In this document: positions 7,427 to 29,272 of the stretch, one piece after another
Numbering within the stretch: the stretch's first letter is position 1
How the letters are laid out: the number at the start of each line of letters is the position of its first letter
Assembly: GCA_041740115.1 (NCBI GenBank)
Contig: JBGSMO010000487.1
Span: 7,953-71,952, forward strand
Reading direction: 5' to 3'
Source of the DNA: Pirellulales bacterium
GTDB lineage: Bacteria > Planctomycetota > Planctomycetia > Pirellulales > Lacipirellulaceae
DNA: 64,000 bases
Notes under the pieces: generated by a model
Database searches by the model: none
What the model saw: only the letters and a program-made list of their open reading frames with translations
What the model was told of the DNA's origin: nothing
Made by a program: the position numbers and the translations under genes

Positions 7427-7459
7427 CAATCGATTTGTTTCTGGGTAGATACCGAAATA

Positions 7460-7840: not shown

Positions 7841-7855
7841 GGCTTAAAAATTCTT

Positions 7856-7987
7856 TAACCGCGAATTACGCGAATCTTCGCGAATAAGGAAATGCTGAGG
7901 AGAATTGAATACTGGATTCGCGGGCCAAGAGTTAGTTGCCTGCTCTTTAGGGAATGGTCCTCGTCTTATTCGCGTGATTCGCGGTTA
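7856..7987. repeat. 9-10-nt-periodic palindrome
   Basis: TAACCGCGAATTACGCGAAT (7856-7875) pairs with 7968-7987 (19/20). Confidence 0.85.
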
Positions 7988-8003
7988 GTTTTTCCTGCCC
8001 GCA

Positions 8004-9062: not shown

Positions 9063-9112
9063 GTGATTCAGTCGTGTGTCGGAGAGTCTGGTTCGTCGTT
9101 TGGCGAACCGCG

Positions 9113-9814: not shown

Positions 9815-9839
9815 GAGTGAGTTTCCGGTGAAGAAGCAA

Positions 9840-13906: not shown

Positions 13907-14835
13907 GTTTCCGGACTGGAGGCCGGCAATGGGGGCGCTGCGGGAAGCTGGCGGAACGTCGACGATTTGTAGACCTGTTGCGGCGGCGTCACGACGCCGC
14001 AGCTCATGATGAATTGTAACGCCTGCTCCATCGTAATGTTCAGGTCAATGGTTTCGCTCCGTTTTACGGTGCAGGTGAAGCCCGTAAAGGGCATCGGCGA
14101 GGTCGGGATCAGCACGGCGAGCACCGGTTCGTTGGCCGCGCAAGCGAGGTCCAGCAAGCTCTCGCCGGTGACGAACGCGATTTGCCACACGCCCTTCCGA
14201 GGATACTCGACCGCCACAATGCGGGTGTAGGCGATCTCGGTTTCGGTGAACATGAAGTCAGTCACTTGCTTGACCGACGAATAGACGTTGCGGATGAGCG
14301 GCAGCCGCGTCACGCCCCGTTCGAATTGCGTCCAGAAGAAGCGGCCGACGCCGGCGGCCAGAAACTTTCCAAGCAGGTACAGCGTCAGCACGAAGACGCA
14401 AAGGAAGATCGGCACGACGATCCGCCGTTGCAGGTATTTGTTCTGGACGTAAATCCGGTAGACGCCGTCGGCAGTGGCAGGCATCGGGCCGCGGCCGACG
14501 ACTTCGGCGACTTCGTCGTAATCGGCGGCAGGGATGTACTGACCGTCGGCGGTTTGTCGGTAGGCGACCCCTTCGATCAGGGCTCGACCTTTCACTGGTT
14601 GATCGGGCGGGACAAGAGCGGCCGGGATAATGCTCTTTTCGTGATAGTCGACCAGCAGCGTCCGCGCGCCATTCTCCAGCGGCACGAGCAGGTAGTCGGC
14701 GATCGTGTTCCAGACCCACAGCAGGATGACGATCGTCAGCAGTGGCGGGAGCAAGATACCCAAGCCGCGGACGATTGCGCGACGAAAGGGGTCGAGCGCA
14801 CTTCCGGTTTTCGTCGTTGGCTGGGGGGAGGACAT
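13903..14835 (-). CDS. DUF502 family membrane protein
   Basis: RGLGILLPPLLT, RLPLIRNVYSSVKQ, VAVEYPRKG and IPTSPMPFTGF motifs. Confidence 0.85.
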   Translation of the reverse strand: MSSPQPTTKTGSALDPFRRAIVRGLGILLPPLLTIVILLWVWNTIADYLLVPLENGARTLLVDYHEKSIIPAALVPPDQPVKGRALIEGVAYRQTADGQYIPAADYDEVAEVVGRGPMPATADGVYRIYVQNKYLQRRIVVPIFLCVFVLTLYLLGKFLAAGVGRFFWTQFERGVTRLPLIRNVYSSVKQVTDFMFTETEIAYTRIVAVEYPRKGVWQIAFVTGESLLDLACAANEPVLAVLIPTSPMPFTGFTCTVKRSETIDLNITMEQALQFIMSCGVVTPPQQVYKSSTFRQLPAAPPLPASSPET

Positions 14836-14897
14836 TGGAAAGCGGAGAGCGGAAAGAATCGGGAGGGGGAGTCGTTTGGCGGGTTTTATAGCTTGCT

Positions 14898-15049
14898 TTA
14901 GCCGTTGGCGGGTGTGCGGGCGAGGACCAGCACGGTGACGTCGGCGGCGCCGGCGCGGCGCAGGACGCGGGCGGCTTCGCTGCAGGTAGCGCCGGTCGTC
15001 AGAATATCATCGACGATCAGCACCCGGGCGGCCGCTAAATGATAGGACG
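14898..15049 (-). pseudogene. comF: comF 3' fragment (PRTase core), separated from its 5' part by the integrated element
   Basis: Manual translation SYHLAAARVLIVDDILTTGATCSEAARVLRRAGAADVTVLVLARTPANG*. VLIVDDILTTGAT is the PRPP-binding loop. An in-frame TAG lies 3 codons upstream inside the element, so the fragment has no start codon. Confidence 0.95.
15035..15049. repeat. Left attachment core (15-bp direct repeat)
   Basis: CTAAATGATAGGACG, identical to 27275-27289. Confidence 0.96.
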
Positions 15050-15093
15050 GGGAACGCTAAACGGTAGTGACTTTTGGAGGTTTTGGACCGGAC

Positions 15094-15112
15094 GCAACGC
15101 GCAAAGCAACGC
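15094..15112 (+). repeat. Putative integrase arm-type site (left)
   Basis: GCAACGCGCAAAGCAACGC, identical to 27138-27156; 45 bp inside the left core. Confidence 0.8.
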
Positions 15113-15251
15113 GCGCCGATTATCCGGCCGGTTTTGCTAAGATACGACACTGCTGGGCTCGGGGACTAATTACCCCCACAGGCCCCGGCCGTCAGCGGAC
15201 CACACCCCGCGGCGGCCGGGACCGGCTCGGCTCTTTGAAAGGTGTGGAAGC

Positions 15252-15875
15252 ATGGACGAATGGCAACCCCCGAAGTTGGGCGCAACGCTCCGAATGCTCG
15301 TCAAAATGCGAGTTCTCTGCCACCGGGAGTTTGATGCGCCGCCATACGCTGGATGCAGCATTTCCGAAGCAGAGTATGAGGCCGCCGGCAGTGACGGCTC
15401 AACCGAGGTCGGCTACGTCTCTTGGCGGACTCGCTGCGAGCGATACTATCGGATTCCGCGAGGGAAGTTCGATGACTTTGAGCGGTTGAGTTCGACGTTG
15501 TGGGGCATTAACAATGCGATATTGTCCATCAAGGCCGCCAAGTTATTGATTCAGCTTGGAGAGCCCGTAAGCGTCATCGCGACAGAGTGCGAGAGCATAG
15601 CGACTTCATGCTTCGTTGTTGGGTCGCAACTACGCCGGTACGCAGACGTTTCAACTCACCGCGAAAAGTCGACGCCCGTTCGCGTGTCGCAATTCGCAGA
15701 CATAGCGGTGGCCTCGAAAGCACGTGATGAAATCAAGCGGCAATTAAGATCGCGGTTGCCCTGGACTGCAGCAACGGACCGCGCCGCGACGACGCTTCGG
15801 AGCCATGGTATCCAAACAACTGGAAAAACCCTTAGGAACAACTTCGCCGACTTGAGGCCCGAAAAGGCGAAGTGA
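15252..15875 (+). CDS. Hypothetical protein (element)
   Basis: 207-aa ORF with no recognised motif; first gene of the element. Confidence 0.65.
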   Translation: MDEWQPPKLGATLRMLVKMRVLCHREFDAPPYAGCSISEAEYEAAGSDGSTEVGYVSWRTRCERYYRIPRGKFDDFERLSSTLWGINNAILSIKAAKLLIQLGEPVSVIATECESIATSCFVVGSQLRRYADVSTHREKSTPVRVSQFADIAVASKARDEIKRQLRSRLPWTAATDRAATTLRSHGIQTTGKTLRNNFADLRPEKAK

Positions 15876-16010
15876 AACGCGGAAACAACCCCGTAGCTTC
15901 CGAAAACTTGGCGGGAAATTACCCCGTCATTTCCGGGAATCATTGGTGACGCCCCTATCGTGATTGCAGTGCCGCACACAGCGGCAAGCACACGACAAAG
16001 GGAGCGACCA

Positions 16011-16214
16011 ATGGTAGCCGCAGCAAACTCACAGCAGCCTCTGCAAGTCAGCGAGCGTGAAGCCGCTCGCATTCTCGGCGTCTCACCGAAGACGCTCTTC
16101 AATCGTCGCCAAGCCGGCAAGATCGGCTTTGTTCGCGACGACGGCCGGATTCTCTACCGGCTCGACGAACTGCAGCGCTATTCCAAGGCCCGGGAAGTCC
16201 CGGCCGTTCTCTAA
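16011..16214 (+). CDS. Excisionase/AlpA-like winged-helix DNA-binding protein
   Basis: LQVSEREAARILGVSPKTLFNRRQAGKIGFVRDDGRILYRLDELQRY fits the Xis/MerR-like HTH pattern; SD AAAGGGAG before ATG 16011. Confidence 0.85.
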   Translation: MVAAANSQQPLQVSEREAARILGVSPKTLFNRRQAGKIGFVRDDGRILYRLDELQRYSKAREVPAVL

Positions 16215-16308
16215 CCCCCACCACCGCCTGGCTGTCCGCGCATTAAAACGCCCGGACGCACCGAGGGCTCAATTTCGGTGGCCGGGCAAAATCGAAAGGA
16301 CTATCCCC

Positions 16309-16554
16309 ATGATAGGGACCATTCAGCTGCAAACCAAGGCTTGCATGGTTTGCTTTCGTGCTGACTCCGTCGCCGGCAAAACTGTCAGCGGCAAGCAGGC
16401 TTGCTCTCAGTGTTGGAGGAACGACAGAGCTGCTGCAAAGCGTCGCGGCAAGATGCGGCCGGGCGTTTGTGCGACGGTCAACGCTTCACTGCCTTCGGTG
16501 AAGCATGTCGCCTCTCTCCCCGGTCAACTCGGCCTCTTCGGGGAGGGCGAGTAA
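16309..16554 (+). CDS. Small CxxC-CxxC (possible zinc-binding) protein
   Basis: SD GAAAGGA before ATG 16309; CMVC...CSQC; stop overlaps the next start (TAATG). Confidence 0.65.
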   Translation: MIGTIQLQTKACMVCFRADSVAGKTVSGKQACSQCWRNDRAAAKRRGKMRPGVCATVNASLPSVKHVASLPGQLGLFGEGE

Positions 16555-16934
16555 TGCAACACCAACCGCCCCCTGCCGTCCCAGTAATGCTCACCGGCCT
16601 ACTCCACGAGAACGGCCAACTCTTCACCGTGTTCGCCGCCGGCGACTCAGAGCGGATCATCGAAGCCGAGCTCTACGACATTCTGCCATTCGATAACTTC
16701 CGTCAGCACGTCCACGAGCGACTCGACTTGCGAGTCGTCTACCGACGCGGCCGTTGGTTCGCCGACGTGATTGAAGCCGCTGAGCGTGGCGGAATCGCAA
16801 TCGAGGTGGACGACCTCACCCGTTGCATCTGGTTGAACGATCGCCAGTTGAGTTACGCCGAAGCTGGATACGCTGCCGAGATTATGCTTTCGCCGGTTGT
16901 CCGTCTAGCCGGCAAGCTGGGGGTGGCCGGATGA
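16554..16934 (+). CDS. Hypothetical protein (element)
   Basis: 126 aa; translationally coupled on both sides (TAATG and ATGA overlaps). Confidence 0.7.
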   Translation: MQHQPPPAVPVMLTGLLHENGQLFTVFAAGDSERIIEAELYDILPFDNFRQHVHERLDLRVVYRRGRWFADVIEAAERGGIAIEVDDLTRCIWLNDRQLSYAEAGYAAEIMLSPVVRLAGKLGVAG

Positions 16935-18688
16935 TTGCAGCCCCGCATGGAATCGCGATTCTCGACGCCCTGGAAGGCGTGAAGTCGAACGGCCAAGACT
17001 CGTGGATGGCTCAATGCCCTTGCCACGAAGATTCAACCGCCTCGCTATCGATCACCCGCGAAGGCGACAAGACGCTCGTTTACTGCCATGCCGGTTGCGA
17101 CACTCGCGACGTGGTCGCCGCTTCTGGTTTGACGATGGCAGACCTGGGGCCGCGTAACGCCAACGGTTCAGCTCCGCACGTCGATAAGGTTTACGACTAC
17201 CGCGACGCTGACGGCTCGCTGATATCTCAAGTCGTGAAGATGCTGCCGAAGGATTTCCGCCAACGTCGGGCGGACGGCACGCCGAGCGTTAAGGGCTGCA
17301 AGGTCGTACCGTACCGGCTCCCTGAAATCGTCCGGGCTGATCCCGCGGCGCCCGTGTTCGTCGTCGAAGGCGAAAAGGATTGCGACAACCTGGCGAAGCT
17401 CGGCATCATCGCAACGTGCAACGCCGGCGGCGCTGGGAAGTGGCGGGCGGTTCACGCTGAGCACCTGAAGGGCCGGCACGTCGTCGTGCTTCCCGACAAC
17501 GATGATCCTGGCCGCAAGCACGCCGAGCAAGTTGCTGCGACGCTCGCGGGCATCGCCCGCAGCGTGAAGACGGTCGAGCTCCCCGGCTTGCCCGAAAAGG
17601 GGGACGTTTCGGATTGGCTCGCTGCAGGTGGGACCGCGGCGAAGCTACTGGAGTTGGCTGCGGAATCGTCCGACGAAGCTGCGGCGTTCCCTAAGTTCAC
17701 GCTCGGCGAACTGACTGAGAAGTTCCGCACGCTCAGCCCACCGGTGATTCACGGTTTCATCCGCGAGGGTGAGACTGCCAACTTCATAGCGAATCCGAAG
17801 ACCGGCAAGTCGTGGACGATGTACGGCTTGGCCATCAACGTCGTCACTGGGTCGGATTGGCTGGGATTGTTCCCAGTCTCTCAAGGTCGCGTGCTGCTGA
17901 TCGACAACGAACTTCACCCCGAGACGCTTGCTCACCGCATCCCGGCTGTTGGCAATGCTCTAGCTAGGCCGTTCGAGGACTATCGCGACGGCATCGACAC
18001 ATGGTGCCTTCGCGGCAATCTTCGCAGCCTGCAACAGTTGCTTGTCGAGTTCCGCAAGTCGGTCGAGCCGCGTCAGTACAAGCTGATCATCTTCGACGCC
18101 AAATATCGCTTCGCGGCCGAAGGCACGAGCGAGAACGACAACGCGGCGGAGACGGCTGTTTACAACCTACTCGACCAGATCGCGGCAGAGACGCGATCAG
18201 CCCTGATCGTCGTTCATCACGCGAGTAAGGGCGGCCAATCTGACAAACGCGTTACCGACGTTGGCGCGGGAGCCGGTGCTCAGAGCCGGGCGGCTGATTG
18301 CCACATGGTGCTGCGCGAGCATGAGGACGAGGGTATCGCCGTGCTCGACGCTGCGGTGCGATCGTTCCCGCCGGTGGCGCCAGTGGCTTTGCGTTGGTCA
18401 TTCCCGATCTGGATTCCCGACGAGTTCGCGGACGCTGCCAAGCTCAAGGGCAAGCAAACCCGCAATGAGGAACGGACGGCGGAGCGAGACAAAGAGGGCA
18501 TCGACAAGATCATCGCCGTGCTGATCACCGGGCCCGCGACAGCCAGCGTCATTAGGCAGGGGACCGGAATCAGCAAAGACCGGTGCGACCGCCTACTTAA
18601 CAAGCTCACTGCCGACGACCAGATCCGCGTGGAGATGGTGAAGGTGAAGGGCAATGAATGCCGCGAATACCACGTTGTCGATGGTTGA
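16931..18688 (+). CDS. Primase-helicase (Zn finger + TOPRIM + RepA/AAA_25-type helicase)
   Basis: CPCHED...CHAGC zinc site; VFVVEGEKD and VVVLPDNDDPG TOPRIM motifs; Walker A ANPKTGKS; Walker B LIIFD; C-terminal wHTH-like segment. Confidence 0.92.
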   Translation: MIAAPHGIAILDALEGVKSNGQDSWMAQCPCHEDSTASLSITREGDKTLVYCHAGCDTRDVVAASGLTMADLGPRNANGSAPHVDKVYDYRDADGSLISQVVKMLPKDFRQRRADGTPSVKGCKVVPYRLPEIVRADPAAPVFVVEGEKDCDNLAKLGIIATCNAGGAGKWRAVHAEHLKGRHVVVLPDNDDPGRKHAEQVAATLAGIARSVKTVELPGLPEKGDVSDWLAAGGTAAKLLELAAESSDEAAAFPKFTLGELTEKFRTLSPPVIHGFIREGETANFIANPKTGKSWTMYGLAINVVTGSDWLGLFPVSQGRVLLIDNELHPETLAHRIPAVGNALARPFEDYRDGIDTWCLRGNLRSLQQLLVEFRKSVEPRQYKLIIFDAKYRFAAEGTSENDNAAETAVYNLLDQIAAETRSALIVVHHASKGGQSDKRVTDVGAGAGAQSRAADCHMVLREHEDEGIAVLDAAVRSFPPVAPVALRWSFPIWIPDEFADAAKLKGKQTRNEERTAERDKEGIDKIIAVLITGPATASVIRQGTGISKDRCDRLLNKLTADDQIRVEMVKVKGNECREYHVVDG

Positions 18689-18830
18689 CCGACAACGTAC
18701 CCGACTACCCGACAACGGGCTGACGGGTGGGGTGGTGGCTCCCTAAAGGGGGAGCCGACAACCCTACCACGTCAGCCTACAGGAACGACAACGATGAATT
18801 CAACAATCGACAACGTACCCGACCGACAAC
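18674..18830. promoter_or_regulatory. Putative replication origin (iterons + hairpin)
   Basis: CGACAAC at 18690, 18710, 18756, 18786, 18808 and 18824, inverted at 18674; the 16-mer CGACAACGTACCCGAC twice; GGCTCCC/GGGAGCC hairpin at 18737-18756. Confidence 0.6.
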
Positions 18831-19009
18831 GCCAGACCACCATCATCTTCGACCAAACAGTCGCCGACCGCATCGAAAGCTTGCTGGCTCGCGTCGAAGG
18901 CGTCCGCCGCGGCGCCACGATCGACCGGCCAACCCGATTCAACCGCGAAGGCGAGCGCCACGCCCGTCGCGTAGCCCAAGCCGACCAATCCCGCGGGACT
19001 TCCCGCTAA
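18794..19009 (+). CDS. Hypothetical protein (element)
   Basis: 71-aa ORF with SD AGGA; its 5' end overlaps the iterons. Confidence 0.5.
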   Translation: MNSTIDNVPDRQRQTTIIFDQTVADRIESLLARVEGVRRGATIDRPTRFNREGERHARRVAQADQSRGTSR

Positions 19010-19034
19010 CCCCGTTTCCTGAAAGGAAAAACCG

Positions 19035-19475
19035 ATGGTAGTTTCCAACCACCCCGACCTCCGCGCCGCCATGTACGCCGCCCACATGGGCACTGGCGGA
19101 ACTCGCGACGAACTGCTCGCCCTAGCTCGACGTCACGGCCAGACGCCGGAGATCTTCGACGCCGACTACGCCGAGATGGGGCGCCGGATTGCGTTGCACA
19201 ACGCCTATTGGTCGTCGCCCGAAGGTTTGGCCATCCGCGACGCTCGGCAGAAGCTCGCTGAAGCCGCTCAGGCCGTCGACGCCGCTGTCGCAGAGTTCGC
19301 GAGCGACGCCCGGGTCGATCACCTGCGGAAGCTGCAGGCCGACGCCACGGCGGAAGTGAACAAGCTGCAGAATGCCAACAGCGAGCAGTTCCAAGCGTTC
19401 TCCAAGGCGATGAAGGCCACGGCCCACCCGGGCGACGCCAACTATCTCGACCCGGCCAACGTGCTCATTCACTAA
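19035..19475 (+). CDS. Hypothetical helical protein (element)
   Basis: 146 aa; strong SD GAAAGGAAA; phage-like codon style. Confidence 0.75.
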   Translation: MVVSNHPDLRAAMYAAHMGTGGTRDELLALARRHGQTPEIFDADYAEMGRRIALHNAYWSSPEGLAIRDARQKLAEAAQAVDAAVAEFASDARVDHLRKLQADATAEVNKLQNANSEQFQAFSKAMKATAHPGDANYLDPANVLIH

Positions 19476-19494
19476 TTCGATGAAAGGAAACACA

Positions 19495-20100
19495 ATGCAA
19501 ATCGTAAAAACCCCGCCGCTCCCGGCGCCCAAGGTTATCCAGCGGCCGTCAGACCGGATCTCAGCCGCCGACCGAGAAGAGATCTACGGCATCATCTGCC
19601 CGGCCGTCGAAGCCGGTAAGCCGCTCACGAAGTCGGAAACGGCCCGCGTCAACGCGATCGTCTCCGGCAAGCCCGTCGGCGTCTTCGTGGCGGAGGCTCA
19701 TCGGTTCGCCCGTGCCGTCGCCGCTGGCGAGGACGTCGCAAACTCGTCGCCCGATCTGCTCCGACTGCTGCAGGATGGACCGGCCGCCGCCCTGATGAAC
19801 GCCGCGACCGCCCGCAAGGCTCTGGCCGACGCGTTCGAGAAGACCGGCTACTTCAAGCGGGTGGCTGAGTTGAAAGAAGCGTGCCGGACTGCACTCGAAG
19901 CCTTCCAGGTCGCCGAGGCGGATGAAGATACCAGCATGCGGAAGATTCGGCGGCTTCAATTGGAGCACGAGCAATCGATTCAGCGGCTCAGTGACTTCTC
20001 GAACACCGCGAACGCCGAATTCACGCTGTTCCGCCGCGAGATGAAGAAGACCGCCGATCTCTCCAAGAACGAACTGCTCTGGCAGAACTTCCTGATTTAA
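19495..20100 (+). CDS. Hypothetical coiled-coil protein (element)
   Basis: 201 aa from ATG 19495 after TGAAAGGAAACAC. Confidence 0.75.
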   Translation: MQIVKTPPLPAPKVIQRPSDRISAADREEIYGIICPAVEAGKPLTKSETARVNAIVSGKPVGVFVAEAHRFARAVAAGEDVANSSPDLLRLLQDGPAAALMNAATARKALADAFEKTGYFKRVAELKEACRTALEAFQVAEADEDTSMRKIRRLQLEHEQSIQRLSDFSNTANAEFTLFRREMKKTADLSKNELLWQNFLI

Positions 20101-20109
20101 GGAGCGACC

Positions 20110-20448
20110 GTGGCAGCCTACGTTCTCAACCCGAAGCATCCCAATTATCGATTTGTACGCACGGTGACGATCGCCGGCCGTCAACCTCGCATCGTCATTT
20201 TCAAAGATGGCGCCGAGGTGGAACTCGACCCAAAGGAGGTGCGATTCCTCGCGGAAGAGATTGCCGCCAATTGGATCGGACTGGCCGGAGTCAAGTTTCC
20301 CAAACCGGAGAAGCCCATTCCCGCGCGGCTGGACCCATCCGAACTGGAAGACCGAGACCCTGAGACGTTTGAATTTGTTCGACCTGAAGACCGACCCCGT
20401 TGGTGGCAAGAGCGGCGTGCAATTTTCCGCGCCGTCAACGGTCGCTGA
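20110..20448 (+). CDS. Hypothetical protein (element)
   Basis: 112 aa; SD TAAGGAG before GTG. Confidence 0.7.
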   Translation: MAAYVLNPKHPNYRFVRTVTIAGRQPRIVIFKDGAEVELDPKEVRFLAEEIAANWIGLAGVKFPKPEKPIPARLDPSELEDRDPETFEFVRPEDRPRWWQERRAIFRAVNGR

Positions 20449-20474
20449 CCCTTTTACCCCTGAAGGAGTTTCCC

Positions 20475-20891
20475 ATGTCCCACTTTGACGATTTCGATGA
20501 CGACGACGACGACTACGAGATCGAGGCTAGTTCCAACCTTCGCCAATTTAGCAGCGGCACCTTGGCAGGCCGACTGGTCGAGAAGATCACGGCACTTCAG
20601 CAGGAGCAGCCGCTTACCCGTGCATTTACAACCCGACCAAGTCACAGGGCTATGCAAACCCAAACCCCTAAGCGGAGCGCCGAGCATCCGATCGTCACGA
20701 AGTATAAGGCCAATCACGGCAGCTATGCCGTCGCAGGCGTCACGCTGTGCGAATTCGCGTTGGACCACTTCGTCAATGACGACGACGCCGGAGAGCCCAG
20801 CGCCGCCCTGATCGCTGAGATTGAAGCTGAGAGCGCAGTTCTTCAGGCGGCTTGGATGAACGGTGAGATCACCAACCCATTTGATGCGTAA
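20475..20891 (+). CDS. Hypothetical acidic protein (element)
   Basis: 138 aa from ATG 20475 after GAAGGAG; begins with a poly-Asp tract (MSHFDDFDDDDDDY). Confidence 0.7.
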   Translation: MSHFDDFDDDDDDYEIEASSNLRQFSSGTLAGRLVEKITALQQEQPLTRAFTTRPSHRAMQTQTPKRSAEHPIVTKYKANHGSYAVAGVTLCEFALDHFVNDDDAGEPSAALIAEIEAESAVLQAAWMNGEITNPFDA

Positions 20892-21088
20892 GCGAGAGCC
20901 GGGCGACAAGCGGGGCCTTAATCCTGAATTTGCACCCCGTGGCCGAGTCGATCGTTGCGGTTCTCTTGACCGCAGCGTGTGTAACAAAGCCCGTCGCCTG
21001 TCCAGTCGGCTACCAGTCGCCCCCTTCGTTCCTTGTGTGGAAGCGGGGCGGCTGGGGCTGATTGATGGCAAAGGCCACCCCGCCGGTG

Positions 21089-21124
21089 GGGTCCTTCCGG
21101 CCTTCGTCAGACCACCCTCGGGTG
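21089..21124 (+). promoter_or_regulatory. Putative cos-like packaging site
   Basis: GGGTCCTTCCGG (21089-21100; lambda cosQ is GGGTCCT, followed by TTCCGG), then the 12-bp dyad CACCC-TC-GGGTG (21113-21124), about 75-100 bp upstream of the Nu1-like gene. Confidence 0.45.
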
Positions 21125-21196
21125 AAGCATCGAACGCCTTTTACACGTCAGGAGTTGAGAGTTGACCCCTAATAATAGCACCCTGGAGGCCCGCAA

Positions 21197-21685
21197 ATGG
21201 CCGCTGTAGCCCTCGAACCCCAGACTCTGAGCAAACACATCTGCGCCGATCTCCGCGATATGGGGCATTGGACGCGCGCCGTGCCGGAGATGTTCCGGGG
21301 CCTGATCGCGATGCATCGGGAAGGCGGCGAAACCGTCGTGAAGACGCTACCGGAAGTTGCCGCCGCGTTCAACATGGCTCCGCAGTCAGTCAAAGGCGAC
21401 TGGCGTGATGGCGGCATGCCTGGCCGTCCTGGGCGCTGGGATCTCGCCGAGATTTTGTGTTGGCGAATCGAGCGTGACGGGCGTGCTCGCGGGGCGACGG
21501 TCGATACGACGCCCGTTGAATCGCTGGTCGACAAGGCTTTGGAGCTACTCAGCGAGCAATACGGAATCACGCACGTCATCGCCGGCGGCGAGCGTCTCGC
21601 CCAAGCATGGGCCGACACGTTGGCCGAGGCGGAAGCGGGAGAGAAGAAACGGGCCCCTAGTGCTCGGAAGCGAATCACCAACTAG
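21197..21685 (+). CDS. Terminase small subunit (lambda Nu1-like) DNA-binding protein
   Basis: PEVAAAFNMAPQSVKGDWRDGGMP...WDLAEILCWRIERD aligns by eye with Nu1 KQLADIFGASIRTIQNWQEQGMP...YDSAAVIKWYAERD. Confidence 0.65.
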   Translation: MAAVALEPQTLSKHICADLRDMGHWTRAVPEMFRGLIAMHREGGETVVKTLPEVAAAFNMAPQSVKGDWRDGGMPGRPGRWDLAEILCWRIERDGRARGATVDTTPVESLVDKALELLSEQYGITHVIAGGERLAQAWADTLAEAEAGEKKRAPSARKRITN

Positions 21686-21710
21686 CCCGACGGGCTGAAA
21701 GGAAACACGA

Positions 21711-23267
21711 ATGAGCGCGAAGTTTGAAATCGGCGGTTCAGCCAGCGGCGCCGTCAAGGCGGTTGAGGAACTCAACAAAGCGTTGAACAAGACCGGCAAA
21801 GAAGCCGAGGGCGCGATCACGCCGACTAAGAAGGTGCAAGAGGCCGCGGCCCGATTGGCCCAACAAGCCGATCCGCAAGAGAAGTACAACGAACGGATGC
21901 GAAAGCTGGTCGAAGCAGTCAAGGGCGGGGGCCTGGAAATCTCCAAGGCGGAAGTGTTGGCCAAACGCTACGGCACGGCGCTTGATAAAGCCGGCGACTC
22001 CGGCGACAACGCGTTCGGTTCCGGGATGCTCGGCAAGATCATGGCGATGGGCGGCGGCATCACGGCGACGCTCGGTCCGCTCGCCCTGATGAAAAAAGGG
22101 TTCGACGATATCTCCGACTCGATCGAGAAAGCCAAGAACGCCAGCGCGGAAGCTCGCCGCGGCATGGGCTCACTTCGACAGTTGGCCAACTCCGACGCCG
22201 AGTTCCAGGGATTGAAGAGTAAGGCGGAAGCTTTGTTCGCCAATGGCTCAGTGCAGACGCTCGACCAGGGAGCGCAAGCCGTCTTCTCGTTGGCGTCTGC
22301 CGGTCAGCTCGACGACAAGAGTTTCAGCATGTTCGCGGGCCTGGCTCAAAAGGGCGTCGTCGATCCGGGGATGTTAGCCAAAGCAGTTCGCCAGTACCAA
22401 TCGGGGTTCGGCGCCGCCGAGACGGGCGGGGCTGGGCAGATCATCTCCAAGGCGTTCGCGGCGTCGGCCTACTCACCGGCGTCGGTCGAAGGGTTGCTCG
22501 GCGCCAGCCCGCAGATGGCGGCAGCCGCGTCGTCGTTGGGGATCAGCGACGAAGAATCGCTCGCGTCGCTGGCGGTGTTGTCGTCGAGCGTCGGGGAGAA
22601 CGTCGCGGCGACTCAGATTCGTGCGTTCCTTAGTTCGACGGCGAACATGGAGGGGACCGAGGGCATGAGCATTGCCGAGCGCGTGAAGATGGTCGCCGGC
22701 AAGAACCTGGATTACGCCAGCCTGAAGAAAACTCTGGGGACCGATGAAGCGACGACGGGCTTCGGCCTGCTGTCCAAGAATATGCAGGAGATTCAACGGG
22801 CGAATCTGGATATTCAAAAGGCGAATTCAGACACAGGCGCGGTAAGTCGTCGCCTGGGTTTCACCGACGCCGAGTCCGATGCAGCCCTGTCGTCGATGAT
22901 GATCGAGAACCAAGGCATTCTCCAAGACCGTCGCGTGGCGGCTTATGAGGAGTTGCGCGACGGCATCTTCGAACGGCAGCGGCAAGGGTTCCGCGAAAGC
23001 GCCAAGAACGGACTCCCGCAGCGATTGAACGCGTCGTTCGACCTGGGGCTAAGCCATACCCAAGAGTTCCTCAACGGCTACCTGATGAGTCCCGAGACGT
23101 TCGTCAACGTCAACGAGTCAGCGGTCGGCAGCGGCGGGATGAGCGACCAGCAACAGGCCGTTCTCGAATCGCTGAATCGTTCGGCAAAGGCGGCTGAGCA
23201 GACGGCGGAAGAGATCAAGCGGCTCTCCGGTCAAAACCGCAGCAAGGTCACGACGAGGCAAGAATGA
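21711..23267 (+). CDS. Phage tail tape-measure-like protein (518 aa)
   Basis: Ala/Gly/Ser-rich helical protein with the TMP-type core ASSLGISDEESLASLAVLSS...AATQIRAFL, an N-terminal PQEKYNERMRKL segment and a C-terminal coiled coil. Confidence 0.72.
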   Translation: MSAKFEIGGSASGAVKAVEELNKALNKTGKEAEGAITPTKKVQEAAARLAQQADPQEKYNERMRKLVEAVKGGGLEISKAEVLAKRYGTALDKAGDSGDNAFGSGMLGKIMAMGGGITATLGPLALMKKGFDDISDSIEKAKNASAEARRGMGSLRQLANSDAEFQGLKSKAEALFANGSVQTLDQGAQAVFSLASAGQLDDKSFSMFAGLAQKGVVDPGMLAKAVRQYQSGFGAAETGGAGQIISKAFAASAYSPASVEGLLGASPQMAAAASSLGISDEESLASLAVLSSSVGENVAATQIRAFLSSTANMEGTEGMSIAERVKMVAGKNLDYASLKKTLGTDEATTGFGLLSKNMQEIQRANLDIQKANSDTGAVSRRLGFTDAESDAALSSMMIENQGILQDRRVAAYEELRDGIFERQRQGFRESAKNGLPQRLNASFDLGLSHTQEFLNGYLMSPETFVNVNESAVGSGGMSDQQQAVLESLNRSAKAAEQTAEEIKRLSGQNRSKVTTRQE

Positions 23268-23584
23268 GCACCATCAGCGCCGACGCACGCTATGCCGAAC
23301 TGCTCACGCACGTCGACTTTCCCGACTGGTGGATTTTCGTCGTCGGCGCCACGCACGTCATCGAACGATGGCACGGCGTCAGCCTGCCGGTAACGACCGT
23401 CGGGCTGATCGAAGTAAAGAAGCAAGGCGTCGACTTCAAGGAACCGAAGTGGGCGTTGCTGCTCTGGGAACTTGGCGCGGAGGCGGACTTCATTGAGAGG
23501 CTACAGCGTGCAACCGCCGAACTGGGAACCGACCGAAGCGGAGATAGCGGCACAGTGTGCGGAGATCCGCCGCGGGTGGAGTGA
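23264..23584 (+). CDS. Hypothetical protein (element)
   Basis: 106 aa; ATGA overlap with the tape-measure-like gene. Confidence 0.55.
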   Translation: MSTISADARYAELLTHVDFPDWWIFVVGATHVIERWHGVSLPVTTVGLIEVKKQGVDFKEPKWALLLWELGAEADFIERLQRATAELGTDRSGDSGTVCGDPPRVE

Positions 23585-23672
23585 GGCGGAGCTGCGGCGG
23601 CGCTCGGCGTGGATGGTCTGCGAGCCGGTGACGGCGCCGGTGGCCGAAGAATCGCTCTTTGATAACTCGTGA
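23508..23672 (+). CDS. Small protein with a PTEAEIAAQCAEIRRGW motif
   Basis: GTG at 23508 with SD GAGAGG; 54 aa; overlaps the end of the previous ORF in another frame. Confidence 0.5.
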   Translation: MQPPNWEPTEAEIAAQCAEIRRGWSEAELRRRSAWMVCEPVTAPVAEESLFDNS

Positions 23673-23786
23673 AGATAAAACCGCCTCCGCACGCGCCGCG
23701 TCGTGCGTTGCGAGGGGCGGGCGTGACCATCGAGCCGCGTTTCGCTGCGATGCGTGAGGCGGGCGCTGAGGGGCTGAGAAGCGAGA

Positions 23787-23816
23787 TTGACAAAACGGGC
23801 GGCTGCGGAGCAAAAT
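23787..23816 (+). promoter_or_regulatory. Sigma-70-like promoter
   Basis: TTGACA-N18-CAAAAT upstream of the 24051/24443 gene pair. Confidence 0.5.
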
Positions 23817-23832
23817 AGCGGCGTCAAAGCAC

Positions 23833-23862
23833 GAACCTTCGGAAGTTAATTTCCGAAGGTTC
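23833..23862. repeat. Perfect 12-6-12 inverted repeat (operator or lox/dif-like recombination site)
   Basis: GAACCTTCGGAA-GTTAAT-TTCCGAAGGTTC. Confidence 0.85.
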
Positions 23863-24050
23863 AATCGCGGGCCTGAGAATCCGCGATACACGCAGTGAGT
23901 TATGTCGAATGGTGAGAAACAAGAACGATCGGCAGAGAGGGTGCGCAGGAAGGCAACGACCTGCGGGCGGTCTCACCCGCCTGACAGCGCCACCTCTGCC
24001 GGTCGTTTTTCTTAGCCCGTGCCGTTCTGGCCGGGCGGAAGGATTCTCCC

Positions 24051-24446
24051 ATGGCCCTCGCACTCTACGCGGGCGACGACCTAGAAGTCTGTCACGACAC
24101 GCGGACTTGGCTGCGGCAAGGTAAATCAGCCATCGAAGGCGGCTATCTAATCGAAGGCGCCGCGTTGCTCCAAAGAGCGGTTCGCGAGTTCCTGCAAGCC
24201 GACTGCGACTACTGGGGCGTTCCCCGGCATCGCACGCTGATCGGCATGGCGAAGTCACTTTATCGAGCCGAGCAGGTCACGCCCGATTCTTATGCGGTAC
24301 TGTCCGGCATCATCTCGACGTGCAACCGCGTCGTGCGTTGCGAGCCGAGGCGTTGCGAAGATGAAAGCCACTTGAAGGCATGCCTGCTAGCCATGCACTC
24401 ATTCTGCGACGGGACCGCCTATCTCGACGAAAGGAGCCAAGCATGA
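24051..24446 (+). CDS. Hypothetical helical protein, possibly HEPN/DUF4145-like
   Basis: 131 aa; GAALLQRAVREFL...TLIGMAKSLYRAEQVT...VLSGIISTCNRVVRC resembles the HEPN helical layout but lacks Rx4-6H; coupled to the recombinase by an ATGA overlap. Confidence 0.55.
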   Translation: MALALYAGDDLEVCHDTRTWLRQGKSAIEGGYLIEGAALLQRAVREFLQADCDYWGVPRHRTLIGMAKSLYRAEQVTPDSYAVLSGIISTCNRVVRCEPRRCEDESHLKACLLAMHSFCDGTAYLDERSQA

Positions 24447-25639
24447 GCACGACCGACAACAAGGCCGACTGGCCCCTACTCCGCATCGTCAACGAGATCA
24501 TGAAGCCGACCGGGCGATGGAAGCCGGCGGTCATTCGCGGTTATCGAGTTGTAGTACGACGCTACGAACGGTTCCGCGGCGGCGAGCAGACGGCCGGCGA
24601 AGTGACCGTCCGTCTGCTGGAGAAGTTCAAGGAACTGATGATTGCCGAGGGCGTTAAGACAAAGGCCGCGGCGACGAAGGCGAGCTACATCGGAACCATC
24701 GTCCGCCAAGCCGACCCCGATCTGTTGCCGAAGCGCAACCTTGGCGAGTACAGCAAGGCCGAGCAAGGCGACCTGCTCTACATCATGGAAAACGAATACT
24801 TCCCGGCGAAGTCGAAGATTGCGAGCGAGACGACGGAGCGGCAGTACAAGTACACGGCGACCCGTTTCTCGAAATTCTTGGGGCGTCGCGCGACGCTCGC
24901 CGACTTAACGGACCAAAGCCTCGGTAAATGGATGCGACAAATGCGAAAGGATGGTTTAGCGATGCCAACGATCAACGGCTACGTCACGAAGCTACGGGCG
25001 TTTTGGAACTGGTGTGCGAAGAAGCGGATGGTCGAAGAGTTCCCGACGATCGAAGATTTCCCCGAGCCGATGACGATTCCCAAGGCGTATAGCGAGGAAG
25101 AGTTTCGGTCCCTGATCGCCGCTACAAAGCTCATGGAAGGTCACGTGGGCGACGTGCCGGCCGGGCAATGGTGGTATGCGTTGCATCTGGTGGCGTTCGA
25201 CACGGGGGAGCGATGTTCGGCGCTGTTGCATCTTGAGTGGACCCACTACGACGCGGGAGACGCGACGCTCGCCGCTCCGGCTGAGATCCGCAAAGGGGGA
25301 CGCAAGCCGATGCTCTATCGCCTGAAGCCGGCGACCGTCGCCACGTTGGCGACCATGCGAGCGACGGCCAGCGGCAAGAAGATATTCTTCTGGGCGCATG
25401 ACGCAACGACGTTCTACAACCACTACAAAAAGCTGCTGGAGTTGGCGGGGCTGCCCTACGTTCCGCACAAGAGCGGGCTGCAAAAGGTGCGTCGGACGTT
25501 CGCCAGCCATATCGAAGCGGCTGGCGGCAACTCGACGCAGGCCCTTAGTCACACGTCGCGGCGAGTGACCGAGAAGTCGTACATCGATCCAAGAATCGCC
25601 AAGGAACCGCCGCACAACGACGTGCTGTTCGACCTGTAG
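24443..25639 (+). CDS. Tyrosine recombinase 1
   Basis: Catalytic motifs FDTGERCSAL (R), KGGRK, LQKVRRT (Q at the HxxR His position), LSHT...TEKSY (H, Y). Confidence 0.92.
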   Translation: MSTTDNKADWPLLRIVNEIMKPTGRWKPAVIRGYRVVVRRYERFRGGEQTAGEVTVRLLEKFKELMIAEGVKTKAAATKASYIGTIVRQADPDLLPKRNLGEYSKAEQGDLLYIMENEYFPAKSKIASETTERQYKYTATRFSKFLGRRATLADLTDQSLGKWMRQMRKDGLAMPTINGYVTKLRAFWNWCAKKRMVEEFPTIEDFPEPMTIPKAYSEEEFRSLIAATKLMEGHVGDVPAGQWWYALHLVAFDTGERCSALLHLEWTHYDAGDATLAAPAEIRKGGRKPMLYRLKPATVATLATMRATASGKKIFFWAHDATTFYNHYKKLLELAGLPYVPHKSGLQKVRRTFASHIEAAGGNSTQALSHTSRRVTEKSYIDPRIAKEPPHNDVLFDL

Positions 25640-26000
25640 CCCCACCGCCGCGGGCAGGCGGCGGTTTTCAAGAAGATCCGGGCGGGCCAAGTTGCTGAGG
25701 GTCGACACAACAACGCCTTGGCGCCGCCCGGAAGCGACCAATGGAGTATTGTTTTGGCCCTGCGCCGTGCCTGAAAAATCTGGCGCGATTGCGCCACGAT
25801 GCCGGTTGCTTGCCGGTGTGAGCGCGGATTGTATGAAAAGCCGTGACGGCGACCCCGCTGGCTAGCAAATCAGCGAAGGCCGCCGCCACAGACCGTTTGA
25901 TCGTTAATAGGCGGCGAGCCCTGGAACGAGTTCCCCAGAGCCCGCCGCCGACAGGAGCTAACCAGCAACTCTACCACCTTTTTTGAGCATTGGAGAAAAA

Positions 26001-27224
26001 ATGGCATCGTTATCAACTTACCAAGACGGCAAGAAAAAAGGCCGGCATCGCGTCCTGTTCACCGACCCCACCGGCAAGCGGCAGACGATCTACCTTGATC
26101 GCATTCCCAAGAAAACGGCCGAGGGCGTTCAACGCGCCATCACCGAGCTTGAGCGATCGGCCCGCTACGGTCACTCGGCGGCAGACTTCGCGTTGGCATG
26201 GCTATCGACCGCCGGCGATGAGATCCGCGAACGACTGACGAAGTTCGGGCTCGCGTCGGCTCGCATGGTCGAAGCGCCCGAGGCGGTAACTCTCGGCACG
26301 CTGGTCGACCTGTACCAGCTTCGCCCCGAGTGGCAGCAGCTGAAGCCCAAGACGATCAAGAACAAGTTGCGCCACTTCAAGCTGGCCCTGGCGTTCTACG
26401 GCGCCGACAAGCCGGTCGAGTCGATCACCAAGGCCGACGCCAAGGCGTTCTACGCGATGCTGCAGCTTCCCGAGGCCAAGGGAGGGCACGACTTCGCCGT
26501 CGCCACGGCCAACCAGACGGCCTCGACGCTGTTCGCTCTGGTCAGCTTCGCCATCGACGCCGAGCTGGTCGACCGGAACGTGTTCAAGGTTCTGCCGCGG
26601 AAGGCCCGAAAGGGGAACAACGTAAACGTCAGCGAGGCTGTCAGCCTTGCAGTGCTCGATTCGCTGCAGACCACCGAGGACAAGCTGCTGTTCGCCCTGG
26701 GGCGCTGGGGCGGGCTACGGATGCCCTCTGAGGGGACGCAGCTACGCTGGCAGGACGTTGATTGGGAAAGGGAGCGTTTCTACACTCGCAGCCCTAAGAC
26801 CGAGCGCCACGAGGGCAGGGAAGGGCGTTGGGTGCCGATCTACCCGCCGTTGGCGCCGCTGTTCCGCGAGATGTTCGAGAAAGCCGCCGACGGCGCCGTC
26901 TACGTTCTCCCGAACTATTGTCATGCGATCTACTCCAAGCCGACGCAGACGCTCAAACAAGCGATCAAGCACGCGGGCGTCGAGCCATGGCCAAGAGCGT
27001 GGCACAGTTGCCGAGCGACGCGGCAGACGGAACTGGCGGCCGATTTTCCGGCTCATGTCGTCGCGAGTTGGATGGGAAACACCGTCGCGGTCGCCGACGC
27101 TCACTACCTGATGGTGCGTGAACTCGACTTTGCAAAAGCAACGCGCAAAGCAACGCAGCACACGCCCGCAACGACGGATAACGAGAAGAAAACGGCTGGC
27201 GTGAACCCTGCAAATCCTCGATAA
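26001..27224 (+). CDS. Tyrosine recombinase 2, likely the integrase for the comF site
   Basis: N-terminal arm-binding-like region (GRHRVLFTDPTGKRQTIYL); RWGGLRMPSE (R), SPKTE (K), WHSCRAT (HxxR), WMGNT...AHY (Y); ends 50 bp from the right att core. Confidence 0.94.
   Translation: MASLSTYQDGKKKGRHRVLFTDPTGKRQTIYLDRIPKKTAEGVQRAITELERSARYGHSAADFALAWLSTAGDEIRERLTKFGLASARMVEAPEAVTLGTLVDLYQLRPEWQQLKPKTIKNKLRHFKLALAFYGADKPVESITKADAKAFYAMLQLPEAKGGHDFAVATANQTASTLFALVSFAIDAELVDRNVFKVLPRKARKGNNVNVSEAVSLAVLDSLQTTEDKLLFALGRWGGLRMPSEGTQLRWQDVDWERERFYTRSPKTERHEGREGRWVPIYPPLAPLFREMFEKAADGAVYVLPNYCHAIYSKPTQTLKQAIKHAGVEPWPRAWHSCRATRQTELAADFPAHVVASWMGNTVAVADAHYLMVRELDFAKATRKATQHTPATTDNEKKTAGVNPANPR
27138..27156 (+). 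repeat. Putative integrase arm-type site (right), inside the integrase CDS
   Basis: GCAACGCGCAAAGCAACGC, identical to 15094-15112; translated as part of KATRKATQ. Confidence 0.8.
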
Positions 27225-27263
27225 TTGCAGGCTGTTGCAGGTGGTTGCCGTTCTATTCCGGAC

Positions 27264-27905
27264 CTAAAGAGCGTCTAAATGATAGGACGCACCTACAGCC
27301 ATTTCTCCCGCCAAATTGCGAAATCGCGCGGGGCGTGATAACCCGACCTGGGGCGGCACATCCCGCACAAGCCGCAGCATCTCGCCCGCGCAGGGGACGT
27401 TCAGCTTTTCGGCGAGGCGGCGAGCGATCAGTTGCGGTGCATTCGCGCCTCGTTGCCATCGGCGCCACCGGTGCATCGGGACGGCGGTGACGACGTCGAT
27501 CTGTAACTCCAGTAGCTGGTTGCTGAGCCGCTGCCATGCCAGTTCGGCGAGCGCGTGCGTCACGACCCCTTGGCGATCGGCCTTCGTGCGCATCACGAGT
27601 TGCCGTAACAGCCCTTCGTAGCTGCCGAGCGCGATCGCCCGCTGGAAGCGAAGCTTGTCGCCGCGGCAGTGGTTGCAGGCGAGGTCGACGCCATTCGTCG
27701 AGGGGACCGGCGCAGCGCAGCGGGGGCAGACTGGCCAGTCGATGAATTCGAGGCGCTCTTCACACTCTCGGCAGATGGGTGACTCGCGCTGCTCTTCGCC
27801 GAGGTCGCCGTGGCAGGCGATGCATTTGGCGGGGAAGAGGAGATCGAGGCCGGCGCCTACGGCGTGTCGCCACCATCGAGTTCGTTGAGTTGGCGGTGTT
27901 GGCAT
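27264..27905 (-). pseudogene. comF: comF 5' fragment (double zinc ribbon + N-part of PRTase), truncated by the element
   Basis: LDLLFPAKCIAC...CREC...CPRC...CNHC, TAVPMHRWRRWQRGAN and QVGLSRPARFRNL; ends ASYHL+DAL* at the att core and lacks the DD..TTGAT motif found at 14898-15035. Confidence 0.95.
27275..27289. repeat. Right attachment core (15-bp direct repeat)
   Basis: CTAAATGATAGGACG, identical to 15035-15049. Confidence 0.96.
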
Positions 27906-28141
27906 GCGCTTCGATCCGGTCGGCGGTTCGATTGAGTAGTCTCAAGATGGATATTCTGGGGCGGGGGAGTGCGGGGTGCAAGCATTTTGGCTGGCGGACG
28001 GACCCCTTGGAGTACCGCGGGGTGACGGCTGCCGGCTCGCAGGCGACGCCTTTCTCGCACCGTGCGGCCGAGCTTGACGCTAGCTGCCGCTCTCAACTAC
28101 CCTCCGCGGCTTCACTCCCGCAGCATGCCGGCGTTCGCGCG

Positions 28142-29272
28142 ATGTTCATCCTCAACCGATACCTGCTGCGGCAATTCTTGCAGGTGTTTCTCATCTGCTT
28201 TTTGAGCCTCACCGGGCTCTACATCGTTATCGACGCCTTTGGGCACCTCGACCACTTCTCGTCGTACGCCGAGAAGGGAGGGAGCCTCTTCGGCATCATG
28301 GCCCAGTATTACGCCTACCACAGTCTCGCTTTTTTCGACGGGACGAGCGGCATCCTGGCGATGATCTCAGCGATGTTCACCGTCACCTGGTTGCAACGGC
28401 ATCAGGAACTGACGGCGATCATGGCGGCTGGCATCTCGAAGATGCGGATCATGAAGCCGATCCTCTTTGCCGCGGCGAGCGTCAGTCTGCTTGGCGTGGC
28501 GAATCGCGAGTTGGTGATTCCGCGCGTCCGCGATGAACTGACGCGCGACACGAAGGACCTCGGCGGCGACGCGGCGCGCGATCTGGAGCCGCGGTTCGAT
28601 CGCAATGGCATCCTCATCGGCGGCGAGAAGATCATCCTCGGCGAGCGGAAGATTCTCAAACCAGCGTTTGTCTTGCCGGCGGAACTCGCCAAGAGCGGCC
28701 AGCAGCTTGTCGCGGCGGAAGCTTATTACAAAGACGCTGAAGAGGGCCGACCGGCGGGGTTCGTCCTCACCGGGGTCACCGCCCCTTCGCGGGTCGACAA
28801 GATGGCGTCAGTCCTCATCGGCGATCAGCCGGTGATTGTGACGCCGCAAGATGTGCCGTGGCTGGGCTCGAACGACTTGTTCGTCGTGAGCGACATACCA
28901 TTTCCAGTCTTAGCGAGCGGCTCGAACTGGCGGAAGTACGCCTCGATTGGCGAGCTCATTCACGAGCTCAACGATCCCGGCGCCGACCTGGGCGCCGACG
29001 TGCGGGTGACCGTTCACACGCGGCTGGTGCAGCCGCTGATGGACGGGACGCTGCTGATGCTCGGCTTGCCGTTGATGTTGTCGCGGAGCAACCGGAACAT
29101 CTTCCTGTCGATCGGCATCTGCATGGGCGTGGCGACGGCGTTCACGCTGATTGCGCTGAGCTGCCAGTCGCTCGGCGCCGTGAACATGCTGCGGCCGTCG
29201 CTGGCGGCATGGTTGCCGCTGCTGATCTTCGTGCCGGTGGCGGCTGGGATGAGCCAGACGCTGCGGACGTAG
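28142..29272 (+). CDS. LptF/LptG (YjgP/YjgQ) family permease
   Basis: MFILNRYLLRQF, ELTAIMAAGISKMRIMKP and PSLAAWLPLLIF motifs. Confidence 0.9.
   Translation: MFILNRYLLRQFLQVFLICFLSLTGLYIVIDAFGHLDHFSSYAEKGGSLFGIMAQYYAYHSLAFFDGTSGILAMISAMFTVTWLQRHQELTAIMAAGISKMRIMKPILFAAASVSLLGVANRELVIPRVRDELTRDTKDLGGDAARDLEPRFDRNGILIGGEKIILGERKILKPAFVLPAELAKSGQQLVAAEAYYKDAEEGRPAGFVLTGVTAPSRVDKMASVLIGDQPVIVTPQDVPWLGSNDLFVVSDIPFPVLASGSNWRKYASIGELIHELNDPGADLGADVRVTVHTRLVQPLMDGTLLMLGLPLMLSRSNRNIFLSIGICMGVATAFTLIALSCQSLGAVNMLRPSLAAWLPLLIFVPVAAGMSQTLRT

Follow-up and report, generated by a model that had tools for sequence, protein, structure and literature searches.

A 12.24-kb element within comF

We analyzed a 64-kb stretch of DNA (64,000 nucleotides; hereafter the window) from contig JBGSMO010000487.1 of a Pirellulales bacterium (Planctomycetota; Lacipirellulaceae), in which the minus-strand gene comF, on which DNA uptake depends in other bacteria, is split by an insert of 12,240 bp (12.24 kb). 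The insert is bracketed by the 15-mer CTAAATGATAGGACG, which was found in exactly 2 copies in the window, while 0.06 matches would be expected by chance, even with 2 mismatches tolerated. The two parts of comF and the two copies of the 15-mer, which form the cores of the left and right attachment (att) sites, were located as follows.

14898-15034, minus strand: comF 3′ fragment, the last 45 codons (AAARVLIVDDILTTGAT...PANG) and the stop codon (14898-14900); the first codon extends into the left core
15035-15049: attL core, CTAAATGATAGGACG, reading (A)SYHL(A) on the coding strand
27275-27289: attR core, the same 15-mer as attL
27276-27905, minus strand: comF 5′ fragment, 210 codons ending ...ASYHL, which encode the double zinc ribbon and the beginning of the phosphoribosyltransferase domain

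The core holds the codons for A-S-Y-H-L-A and lies ~5 codons before the VLIVDDILTTGAT strand and the phosphoribosyl pyrophosphate (PRPP)-binding loop. In situ, the 5′ open reading frame (ORF; 27905-27264, minus strand) encodes 213 amino acids (aa), i.e., the 210 comF codons followed by DAL and a TAG stop codon. When positions 15050-27289 (12,240 bp, consisting of one core copy and the insert) were deleted, a 255-aa ORF was obtained, and residues 207-255 of its product were found at the comF 3′ fragment with 100% identity (tblastn). The original prediction, namely, that comF is split by a 12.24-kb element whose excision gives back a 255-aa ComF, was correct in all its coordinates and counts, including the 210-codon 5′ part and the 45-codon 3′ part that continues in frame from the left core. 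It had also held that the element brings no replacement for the end of comF, and this was borne out, with the 5′ ORF stopping after DAL and the lost 45 codons not restored. The PRPP-binding loop is cut off, as had been claimed: the 3′ fragment contains the central β-strand and the PRPP-binding loop of the phosphoribosyltransferase fold, with VLIVDDILTTGAT located in it. Since all ORFs of the element are on the plus strand, transcription of the element converges with that of comF.

The rebuilt ORF has the architecture of the ComF family, with an N-terminal double zinc ribbon followed by a type-I phosphoribosyltransferase domain in a protein of ~190-260 aa. Both domains scored above the Pfam gathering scores (DZR_2 at residues 20-81, E value of 7.7e-12; Pribosyltran at residues 163-253, E value of 9.4e-8), and positions 4-226/227 of the GntX profile (PRK11595) were covered with an E value of 3.7e-34. 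The end-to-end profile matches fell below the curated cut-offs (GntX, 118 versus 304 bits; comF, TIGR00201, 85 versus 234 bits), as expected for a distant phylum. Close relatives of the rebuilt protein carry the name "ComF family protein" at NCBI and JGI. In a large protein collection, intact homologues of 253-256 aa were matched over their full length with identities of 95%, 93%, and 89%, and the homologue from Lacipirellula limnantheis with 84%, which makes the host a Lacipirellula-like bacterium of the order Pirellulales. The original prediction had staked the split-gene interpretation on colinearity with intact ComF orthologues, and the rebuilt ORF aligned with them over its full length, with no gap or shift at the junction. 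The PRPP loop signature DDxxTTG is present, and VLIVDDILTTGAT aligned to the PRPP loops of solved phosphoribosyltransferases. Sequence and profile searches of solved structures reached generic phosphoribosyltransferases only, and not ComFC of Helicobacter pylori. The surrounding gene order, cyclophilin - lptF/G - comF - DUF502 - hemC, was shared by L. limnantheis and 2 further relatives, and the window shows this order too when the insert is disregarded.

Contigs from public metagenome runs were compared against window positions 14300-28500. In a hot-springs metagenome (run X2), a contig of 10,007 bp matched 14300-15034 and 27275-28500 with 0 mismatches and skipped exactly 12,240 bp, and the 15-bp ambiguity at the joint was identical to the attL core. 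Contigs from two other runs (X3 and X4) had the same joint, so that the empty site foreseen in the original prediction (..CGGCCG-core-CACC..) exists as such in nature. Among the indexed runs, the element was found only in X1 (Logan SRR28170464), a biofilm metagenome that belongs to the same study as X2. Single-run contigs of X1 crossed both junctions (14989-19148 for attL and 19162-27663 for attR), and the X1 element was identical to that of the window, with 0 differences in 8,128 nt. From 37 bp past the core onwards, the X1 host comF departed from that of the window, with differences at 26 of 387 nt (synonymous in 20 codons, non-synonymous in 3), and the outer flanks were 6-12% different. The filled site predicted for the window is thus seen again in a sister lineage, whose comF carries the insertion at the identical nucleotide, and because the X1 contigs show both sides independently, insertion at this comF nucleotide is real even if the window junctions are not. 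Outside the element (within 14300-46500), the window chromosome matched X2 contigs with 0-1 mismatch over ~19 kb, and the X2 contigs matching the element were only a few short, mismatched pieces.

Recurrent targeting of the same core

The comF core is occupied in five lineages, i.e., the window together with X1, L005, L003/L004, L041, and L001/L002, where L005 and L041 came from scans of genome and metagenome collections. The same 15-mer stands at the junction in L001, L002, L003, L004, L005, and L041. The host ComF proteins at occupied sites share 68-93% identity with that of the window, and the 15-mer is nevertheless unchanged; in unoccupied relatives, the core site has 1-2 or more mismatches, with 1-2 in the related sites of L. 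parvula and L. limnantheis. Two clusters of truncated ComF proteins, P0012 and P0047, end at the same codon, with ...SYHL followed by AL. In their contigs (L003/L004 and L001/L002), the core is followed directly by a 406-407-aa integrase that is 46-47% identical to the one encoded at 25983-27224 of the window. L005, from a metagenome-assembled genome (MAG) of Pirellula sp. PB1.3.31, carries an integrase 93% identical to that of the window and otherwise unrelated cargo, and the integrase of L041 is 47% identical. The original prediction had called for comF-targeting integrases in relatives, and these loci provide them, all at the same core.

The integrases fall into two sublineages, with ~47% identity between them. 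One is made up of the window and L005, and the other of L003, L041, and L001 (76-87% mutual identity); the window integrase shares 46-48% identity with these three, all of which adjoin a comF cut at the same core. The two sublineages are carried on at least 5 different cargo sets; L003, for example, carries Fic, DUF2971, and a second recombinase, and L001 a protein kinase. None of the occupied loci rebuilds comF, and the ORF ends 2-7 codons after L210. In the loci other than the window, the second att end lies beyond the contig end or the 10-kb flank, and no comF 3′ fragment was found within them. The nearest other relatives of the integrase (51-56% identity) adjoin unrelated genes (L006, L007, L121, L122, and L124), and no relatives were found in viral contigs. 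This integrase lineage is specialised for the comF core.

A two-gene module was also observed just upstream of the comF integrase in 4 of the 5 comF-targeting elements. It consists of an ORF of ~130 aa and a second tyrosine recombinase, and its positions are as follows.

Window, 24051-25639
L130 (= L005), 4853-6513
L003, 3051-4714
L041, 16-1113

The ~130-aa proteins are homologous, with 24-46% identity. Between L005 and L003, the second recombinase is 78% identical, compared with only 47% for the comF integrase, and the second recombinase of the window is very divergent.

Gene content and relation to known elements

The window around the element is ordinary core chromosome. None of the element ORFs is interrupted, and the features within the element and the flanking gene groups are listed below.

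2192-10886, left of the element: flagellar genes (flagellin-like protein of 899 aa, flgK, flgI, flgA)
15094-15112, plus strand: left copy of the 19-bp repeat GCAACGCGCAAAGCAACGC, two GCAACGC units 12 bp apart, 45 bp inside attL
15252-15875, plus strand: ORF of 207 aa, the first in the element, matching no family; its counterparts by position are the first genes of L121 and L124 (178-184 aa)
15960-16214, plus strand: excisionase/AlpA-like helix-turn-helix (HTH) protein, 84 aa
16823-18688, plus strand: primase-helicase, 621 aa as the longest ORF, with CHC2 zinc finger, Toprim, and AAA_25 RepA/DnaB-like ATPase
19035-19475, 19480-20100, 20110-20448, and 20475-20891, plus strand: four small ORFs; the same genes were called in the X1 contig L128
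21197-21685, plus strand: ORF of 162 aa, with a weak hint of a terminase small subunit (TerS)
21711-23267, plus strand: tape-measure/minor-tail-like protein, 518 aa, named from PhageMin_Tail-bearing homologues
23264-23584, plus strand: ORF of 106 aa, conserved together with the tape-measure-like gene and sharing 42% identity with the ORF that follows the PhageMin_Tail gene in L124
23675-24050, plus strand: conserved non-coding stretch, with a hairpin at ~23838-23866 and a sigma-70-like promoter match at 23787-23816
24051-25639, plus strand: the two-gene module, with an ORF of 131 aa (24051-24446) and the second tyrosine recombinase (24443-25639 as called in X1; longest ORF from 24380)
25983-27224, plus strand: comF-specific tyrosine integrase, 407 aa from the ATG at 26001, with its stop codon 50 bp before the attR core
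27138-27156, plus strand: right copy of GCAACGCGCAAAGCAACGC, 119 bp inside attR, in the 3′ end of the integrase gene (residues ...KATRKATQ...)
37169-42240, right of the element: NADH dehydrogenase (nuo) operon

The arrangement at the ends is that of an integrase-type element, with a duplicated 15-bp core and the integrase gene adjoining one att site. The integrase matched PF00589 (E value of 5.6e-7; 29.9 bits versus a cut-off of 27.1) and PHROG 1, "integrase" (3.3e-22). Residues R246, K272, R344, and Y375 were invariant in alignment A2, and H341 is replaced by Gln in sublineage B, all of these being assigned by eye, without a structural alignment. The second tyrosine recombinase matched Phage_int_SAM_5 (7.5e-11), PF00589 weakly, and PHROG 1, "integrase" (4.8e-20). 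The 19-bp repeat GCAACGCGCAAAGCAACGC was found in exactly 2 copies in the window, one near each end of the element, compared with 0.08 expected, and the right copy is kept in L005 with one mismatch. The two copies are candidate arm-type binding sites for a recombinase. Targeting of a tRNA-type site was considered and rejected, with no tRNA in the window and no Rfam match in or around the element.

For the HTH protein, matches to Pfam HTH_17 (9.9e-8) and PHROG 66, "excisionase and transcriptional regulator" (3e-8), were obtained. The primase-helicase matched Pfam AAA_25 (8e-29), Toprim_2, and Zn_ribbon_DnaG, as well as PHROG 239, "DNA primase/helicase" (4.6e-37), with ~30% identity to actinophage primase/helicases and 56% to the homologue in L124. 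The 518-aa protein had no direct Pfam hit and no match in a phage GenBank set or among solved structures; its homologues P0162-P0168 carry PF10145 (PhageMin_Tail), one of them (P0164) at the tape-measure position of the tail module of a Posidoniimonas prophage, and it aligned over its full length with the 511-aa PhageMin_Tail protein of L124 (29% identity, 3e-34). The TerS hint came from PHROG 57 and covered residues 50-102 only (E value of 0.008), and an AlphaFold model of the 162-aa ORF product was too low in confidence to use (predicted local distance difference test score of 41). Searches of Pfam, PHROGs, and PADLOC gave nothing significant for the four small ORFs. The Pfam and PHROGs scans revealed no capsid, portal, or large terminase among the element proteins, and no defence system was found with PADLOC, where a single marginal LmuB fragment hit (6e-4) on a 146-aa ORF was discounted.

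Planctomycete relatives of ~10-12 kb share the layout HTH_17 - primase/helicase - ... - integrase. Two of these related islands, each of ~10 kb, contain phage morphogenesis-type genes.

L121, 6121-7371: HK97-type capsid gene (Phage_capsid_4)
L124, 6999-8534: PhageMin_Tail (tape-measure-like) gene

Islands of this type suggest a diverse, undescribed family of satellite-like elements in the Pirellulales. No relatives were found in viral collections (IMG/VR and a phage GenBank set) beyond generic primase similarity.

With an AlpA/Xis-like HTH protein, a primase-helicase, and a tape-measure-like gene, and without capsid, portal, or large terminase, the element looks like a satellite or otherwise dependent element and not like a complete prophage. 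Like P4-like satellites and phage-inducible chromosomal islands (PICIs) of ~10-15 kb, it has the integrase at one end, an AlpA/Xis-type HTH gene followed by the primase-helicase, and a few phage morphogenesis-type genes in place of a full virion module. In contrast to these satellites, it lacks psu/sid/delta, a divergent repressor of the Stl type, and a confirmed TerS or capsid-remodelling gene, all its genes are on one strand, and a second recombinase is present; moreover, the tape-measure-like gene is no known satellite marker. Judged by its gene content, the element is a small, phage-derived, and probably helper-dependent integrative island, which is satellite-like, although its membership of the P4-like/PICI groups is not established.

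The pair of recombinases also recalls Tn554-type elements, which have two tyrosine recombinases and a small third protein and insert in one orientation in radC. Two tandem tyrosine recombinases, a companion ORF of ~130 aa, and a single site in a competence-linked gene are common to both. Unlike Tn554, the element described here has a duplicated 15-bp core, as in classical integrase att sites, and a different gene order, none of its proteins matched the TnpA, TnpB, or TnpC models (NCBIfam), and the comF-targeting L001 has no second recombinase in the visible 5 kb.

The non-coding stretch at 23675-24050 has 83-86% identity to pieces of L003 (6546-6615) and L006 (110-331) and gave no Rfam match. 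It was also observed to attract short, high-depth contigs from runs without the element. From these matches, it may be a shared regulatory or repeated sequence.

Probable loss of ComF function and competing explanations

We consider it likely that a phage-related island recombined into the comF core by means of its att-proximal integrase and left ComF without function. In this process, the att-proximal tyrosine integrase (26001-27224) would recombine the 15-bp core of the element with the identical 15 bp in comF, which would leave comF in two parts, a 5′ fragment of 210 codons that runs into a stop three foreign codons later and an orphan 3′ fragment of 45 codons. ComF loses the core of the phosphoribosyltransferase fold and is therefore most likely non-functional, and the element carries no substitute; the 213-aa truncated product would very probably be inactive. 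For ComFC of H. pylori, in which the PRPP-loop signature is DDIITTGTTL, a single substitution in the PRPP loop reduced transformation >40-fold (PMC9005727), and by analogy with this mutant, a loss of DNA uptake is plausible. The consequence of losing comF is not necessarily limited to classical transformation because, according to a 2025 review, both ComEC and ComF are needed for the uptake of gene transfer agent (GTA) DNA in Rhodobacter (PMC12378983). The island itself may draw a selective benefit from the insertion, such as escape from removal by transformation, and would be expected to move between cells.

Mobile-element insertions in comK, comYC, comGA, pilQ, comFA, comEC, comM, ssbB, and other genes have been compiled by Croucher et al. 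(2016) and in the 2025 review, and these sources argue that such insertions guard the element against removal by transformation (PMC4774983, PMC12378983). The cases described there include the comK prophage phi10403S of Listeria, comYC prophages of Streptococcus pneumoniae, comM islands (AbaR and others), and comFA prophages of S. suis, S. equi, and Bacillus cereus (PMC4774983, PMC12378983), where comFA encodes a helicase unrelated to comF/ComFC (PMC12378983). Searched for comF terms, the 2025 review yielded no insertion in comF/ComFC (PMC12378983), and a literature search for comFC with prophage or integrase found no insertion case. Like the elements in competence genes, the island described here lies within the coding sequence of a gene for DNA uptake or processing, does not rebuild that gene, and shares its site, across diverged hosts, with related integrases; as in the convergent comFA case, two sublineages only 47% identical use the same gene. 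It differs from them in its target, comF (ComFC/GntX, zinc ribbon and phosphoribosyltransferase), in its hosts, members of the Planctomycetota (Lacipirellulaceae), and, compared with full prophages and resistance islands, in being a 12-kb satellite-like island known from sequence alone. The island thus extends a known strategy to a further target gene and a further phylum and does not represent a novel type of system. The idea that transformation serves to rid genomes of parasites draws its main field evidence from mobile elements in competence genes, and the targeting of comF is an indirect, testable hint of ComF-dependent DNA uptake in Planctomycetota.

Several points weigh against an integrase-mediated insertion that abolishes ComF function. 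We know of no demonstration of natural transformation in Planctomycetota, and a literature search on transformation in Planctomycetes gave nothing relevant. In our own reading of the integrase sequence, the "MGN" motif has Asn (N366) where most of the family has His or Trp. No relaxase, capsid, or terminase was detected that would point to a mode of transfer, the TerS hint being weak. The junctions of the window itself were found in no indexed run (best share of sampled words, 0.61), and an attP or circle junction was found neither in an exact search of IMG/VR nor, as a joint that goes back, in the contigs of X1-X4.

The missing junctions bear on the window contig, which represents either the element in two ~90%-identical lineages, as after a very recent transfer, or a strain chimera. 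In the latter case, an X2-type chromosome would have been joined, via short identical stretches around the core and in a co-assembly or strain-collapsed assembly, to an element that truly resides in the comF of an X1-type sister lineage. We put the chances of this at somewhat less than even. The near-perfect match of the window outside the element to X2, where the comF site is empty, is consistent with a chimera, as are the restriction of the element to X1 among the indexed runs, the diverged flanks to which it is joined there, and the fact that, by exact look-up, the truncated 213-aa product is on record nowhere. However, the two lineages have only short stretches in common (52 bp at attR, i.e., the core and 37 bp, and at most ~77 bp at attL), two strain switches would be needed within them, and assemblers usually keep ~90%-identical lineages apart. 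The source run may also simply not be indexed, for example, if it is a long-read or later run, and the X2-type lineage is present in X1 at low depth. If the contig is chimeric, the biology of an element in comF holds, but not for this host, and the evidence of recent transfer between hosts falls away; if it is not, the identical copy in two ~90%-identical host lineages is a record of very recent inter-host transfer. A metagenome contig can combine the chromosome of one strain with the island of another. The original prediction had further proposed that the insertion may be reversible, and a switch of this kind (active lysogeny), in which the island excises under some condition, restores comF, and re-integrates, like the comK prophage of Listeria, would fit the exact restoration of the gene on precise excision, the undecayed state of both comF halves, the presence of an excisionase-like gene and two intact recombinases, and the existence of natural empty sites. 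The contigs gave it no support: X1 had no empty-site contig, the depth of the element (18.7-19.1) equalled that of the host flanks (14.4-18.6), and the proposed circle junction (..GAGCGT-core-GGGAAC..) was absent from X1-X4 and from viral contigs. These absences are weak negative evidence because contigs drop rare variants. The empty sites belong to another lineage or another sample and are equally explained as never occupied, and we regard a reversible switch as improbable.

A different question is why comF is the target of the integrase-mediated insertion that we favor. The core may be no more than a conserved, unique landing sequence, used as tRNA genes are, in a gene that is dispensable and whose loss is irrelevant to the success of the element. 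The literature search without relevant hits on planctomycete transformation would agree with this, and so would the unrelated sites of the closest integrase relatives and the rarity of occupancy (two truncated clusters among the 120 ComF relatives listed). On the other hand, comF is under clear purifying selection (of the codon changes that separate the X1 and X2 types, 20 are synonymous and 3 non-synonymous), and intact orthologues occur across the family. When an integrase inserts its element into a needed gene, the 3′ end is usually restored, and neither of the two divergent sublineages does this here. Disruption of competence genes by mobile elements is, moreover, a recurrent pattern documented in both compilations (PMC4774983, PMC12378983), and a neutral landing site appears to us somewhat unlikely. 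The converse proposal, that planctomycete integrases have specialised on comF since a knockout of ComF-dependent import protects the island from deletion by incoming homologous DNA, is speculative, and we would sooner doubt it than adopt it; if it holds, Planctomycetota would have active natural transformation, or a ComF-dependent uptake route of the GTA type, with an effect on fitness. Finally, the island could be an immobile remnant of a larger prophage that decayed within comF by chance, given its small size, the missing capsid, portal, and large terminase, and its one lone tail-type gene. This is very improbable in view of the clean 15-bp duplication of the att core, the 19-bp arm repeats that match between the two ends, the uninterrupted ORFs on a single strand, the ~10-12-kb relatives with the same layout, and the X1 copy identical to that of the window.

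The compact integrase and its 15-bp core are a possible tool for site-specific integration in the Lacipirellulaceae, which are hard to manipulate genetically. As a side observation on the same integrase family, its closest relative outside comF (53% identity) is encoded within the stretch 2176-4939 of L006 (PNKX01000015.1), from the same MAG as L005. It lies directly upstream of a sulfatase-like ORF whose N-terminus is apparently missing, and, judging from this arrangement, L006 may be another gene-splitting insertion by the same family.

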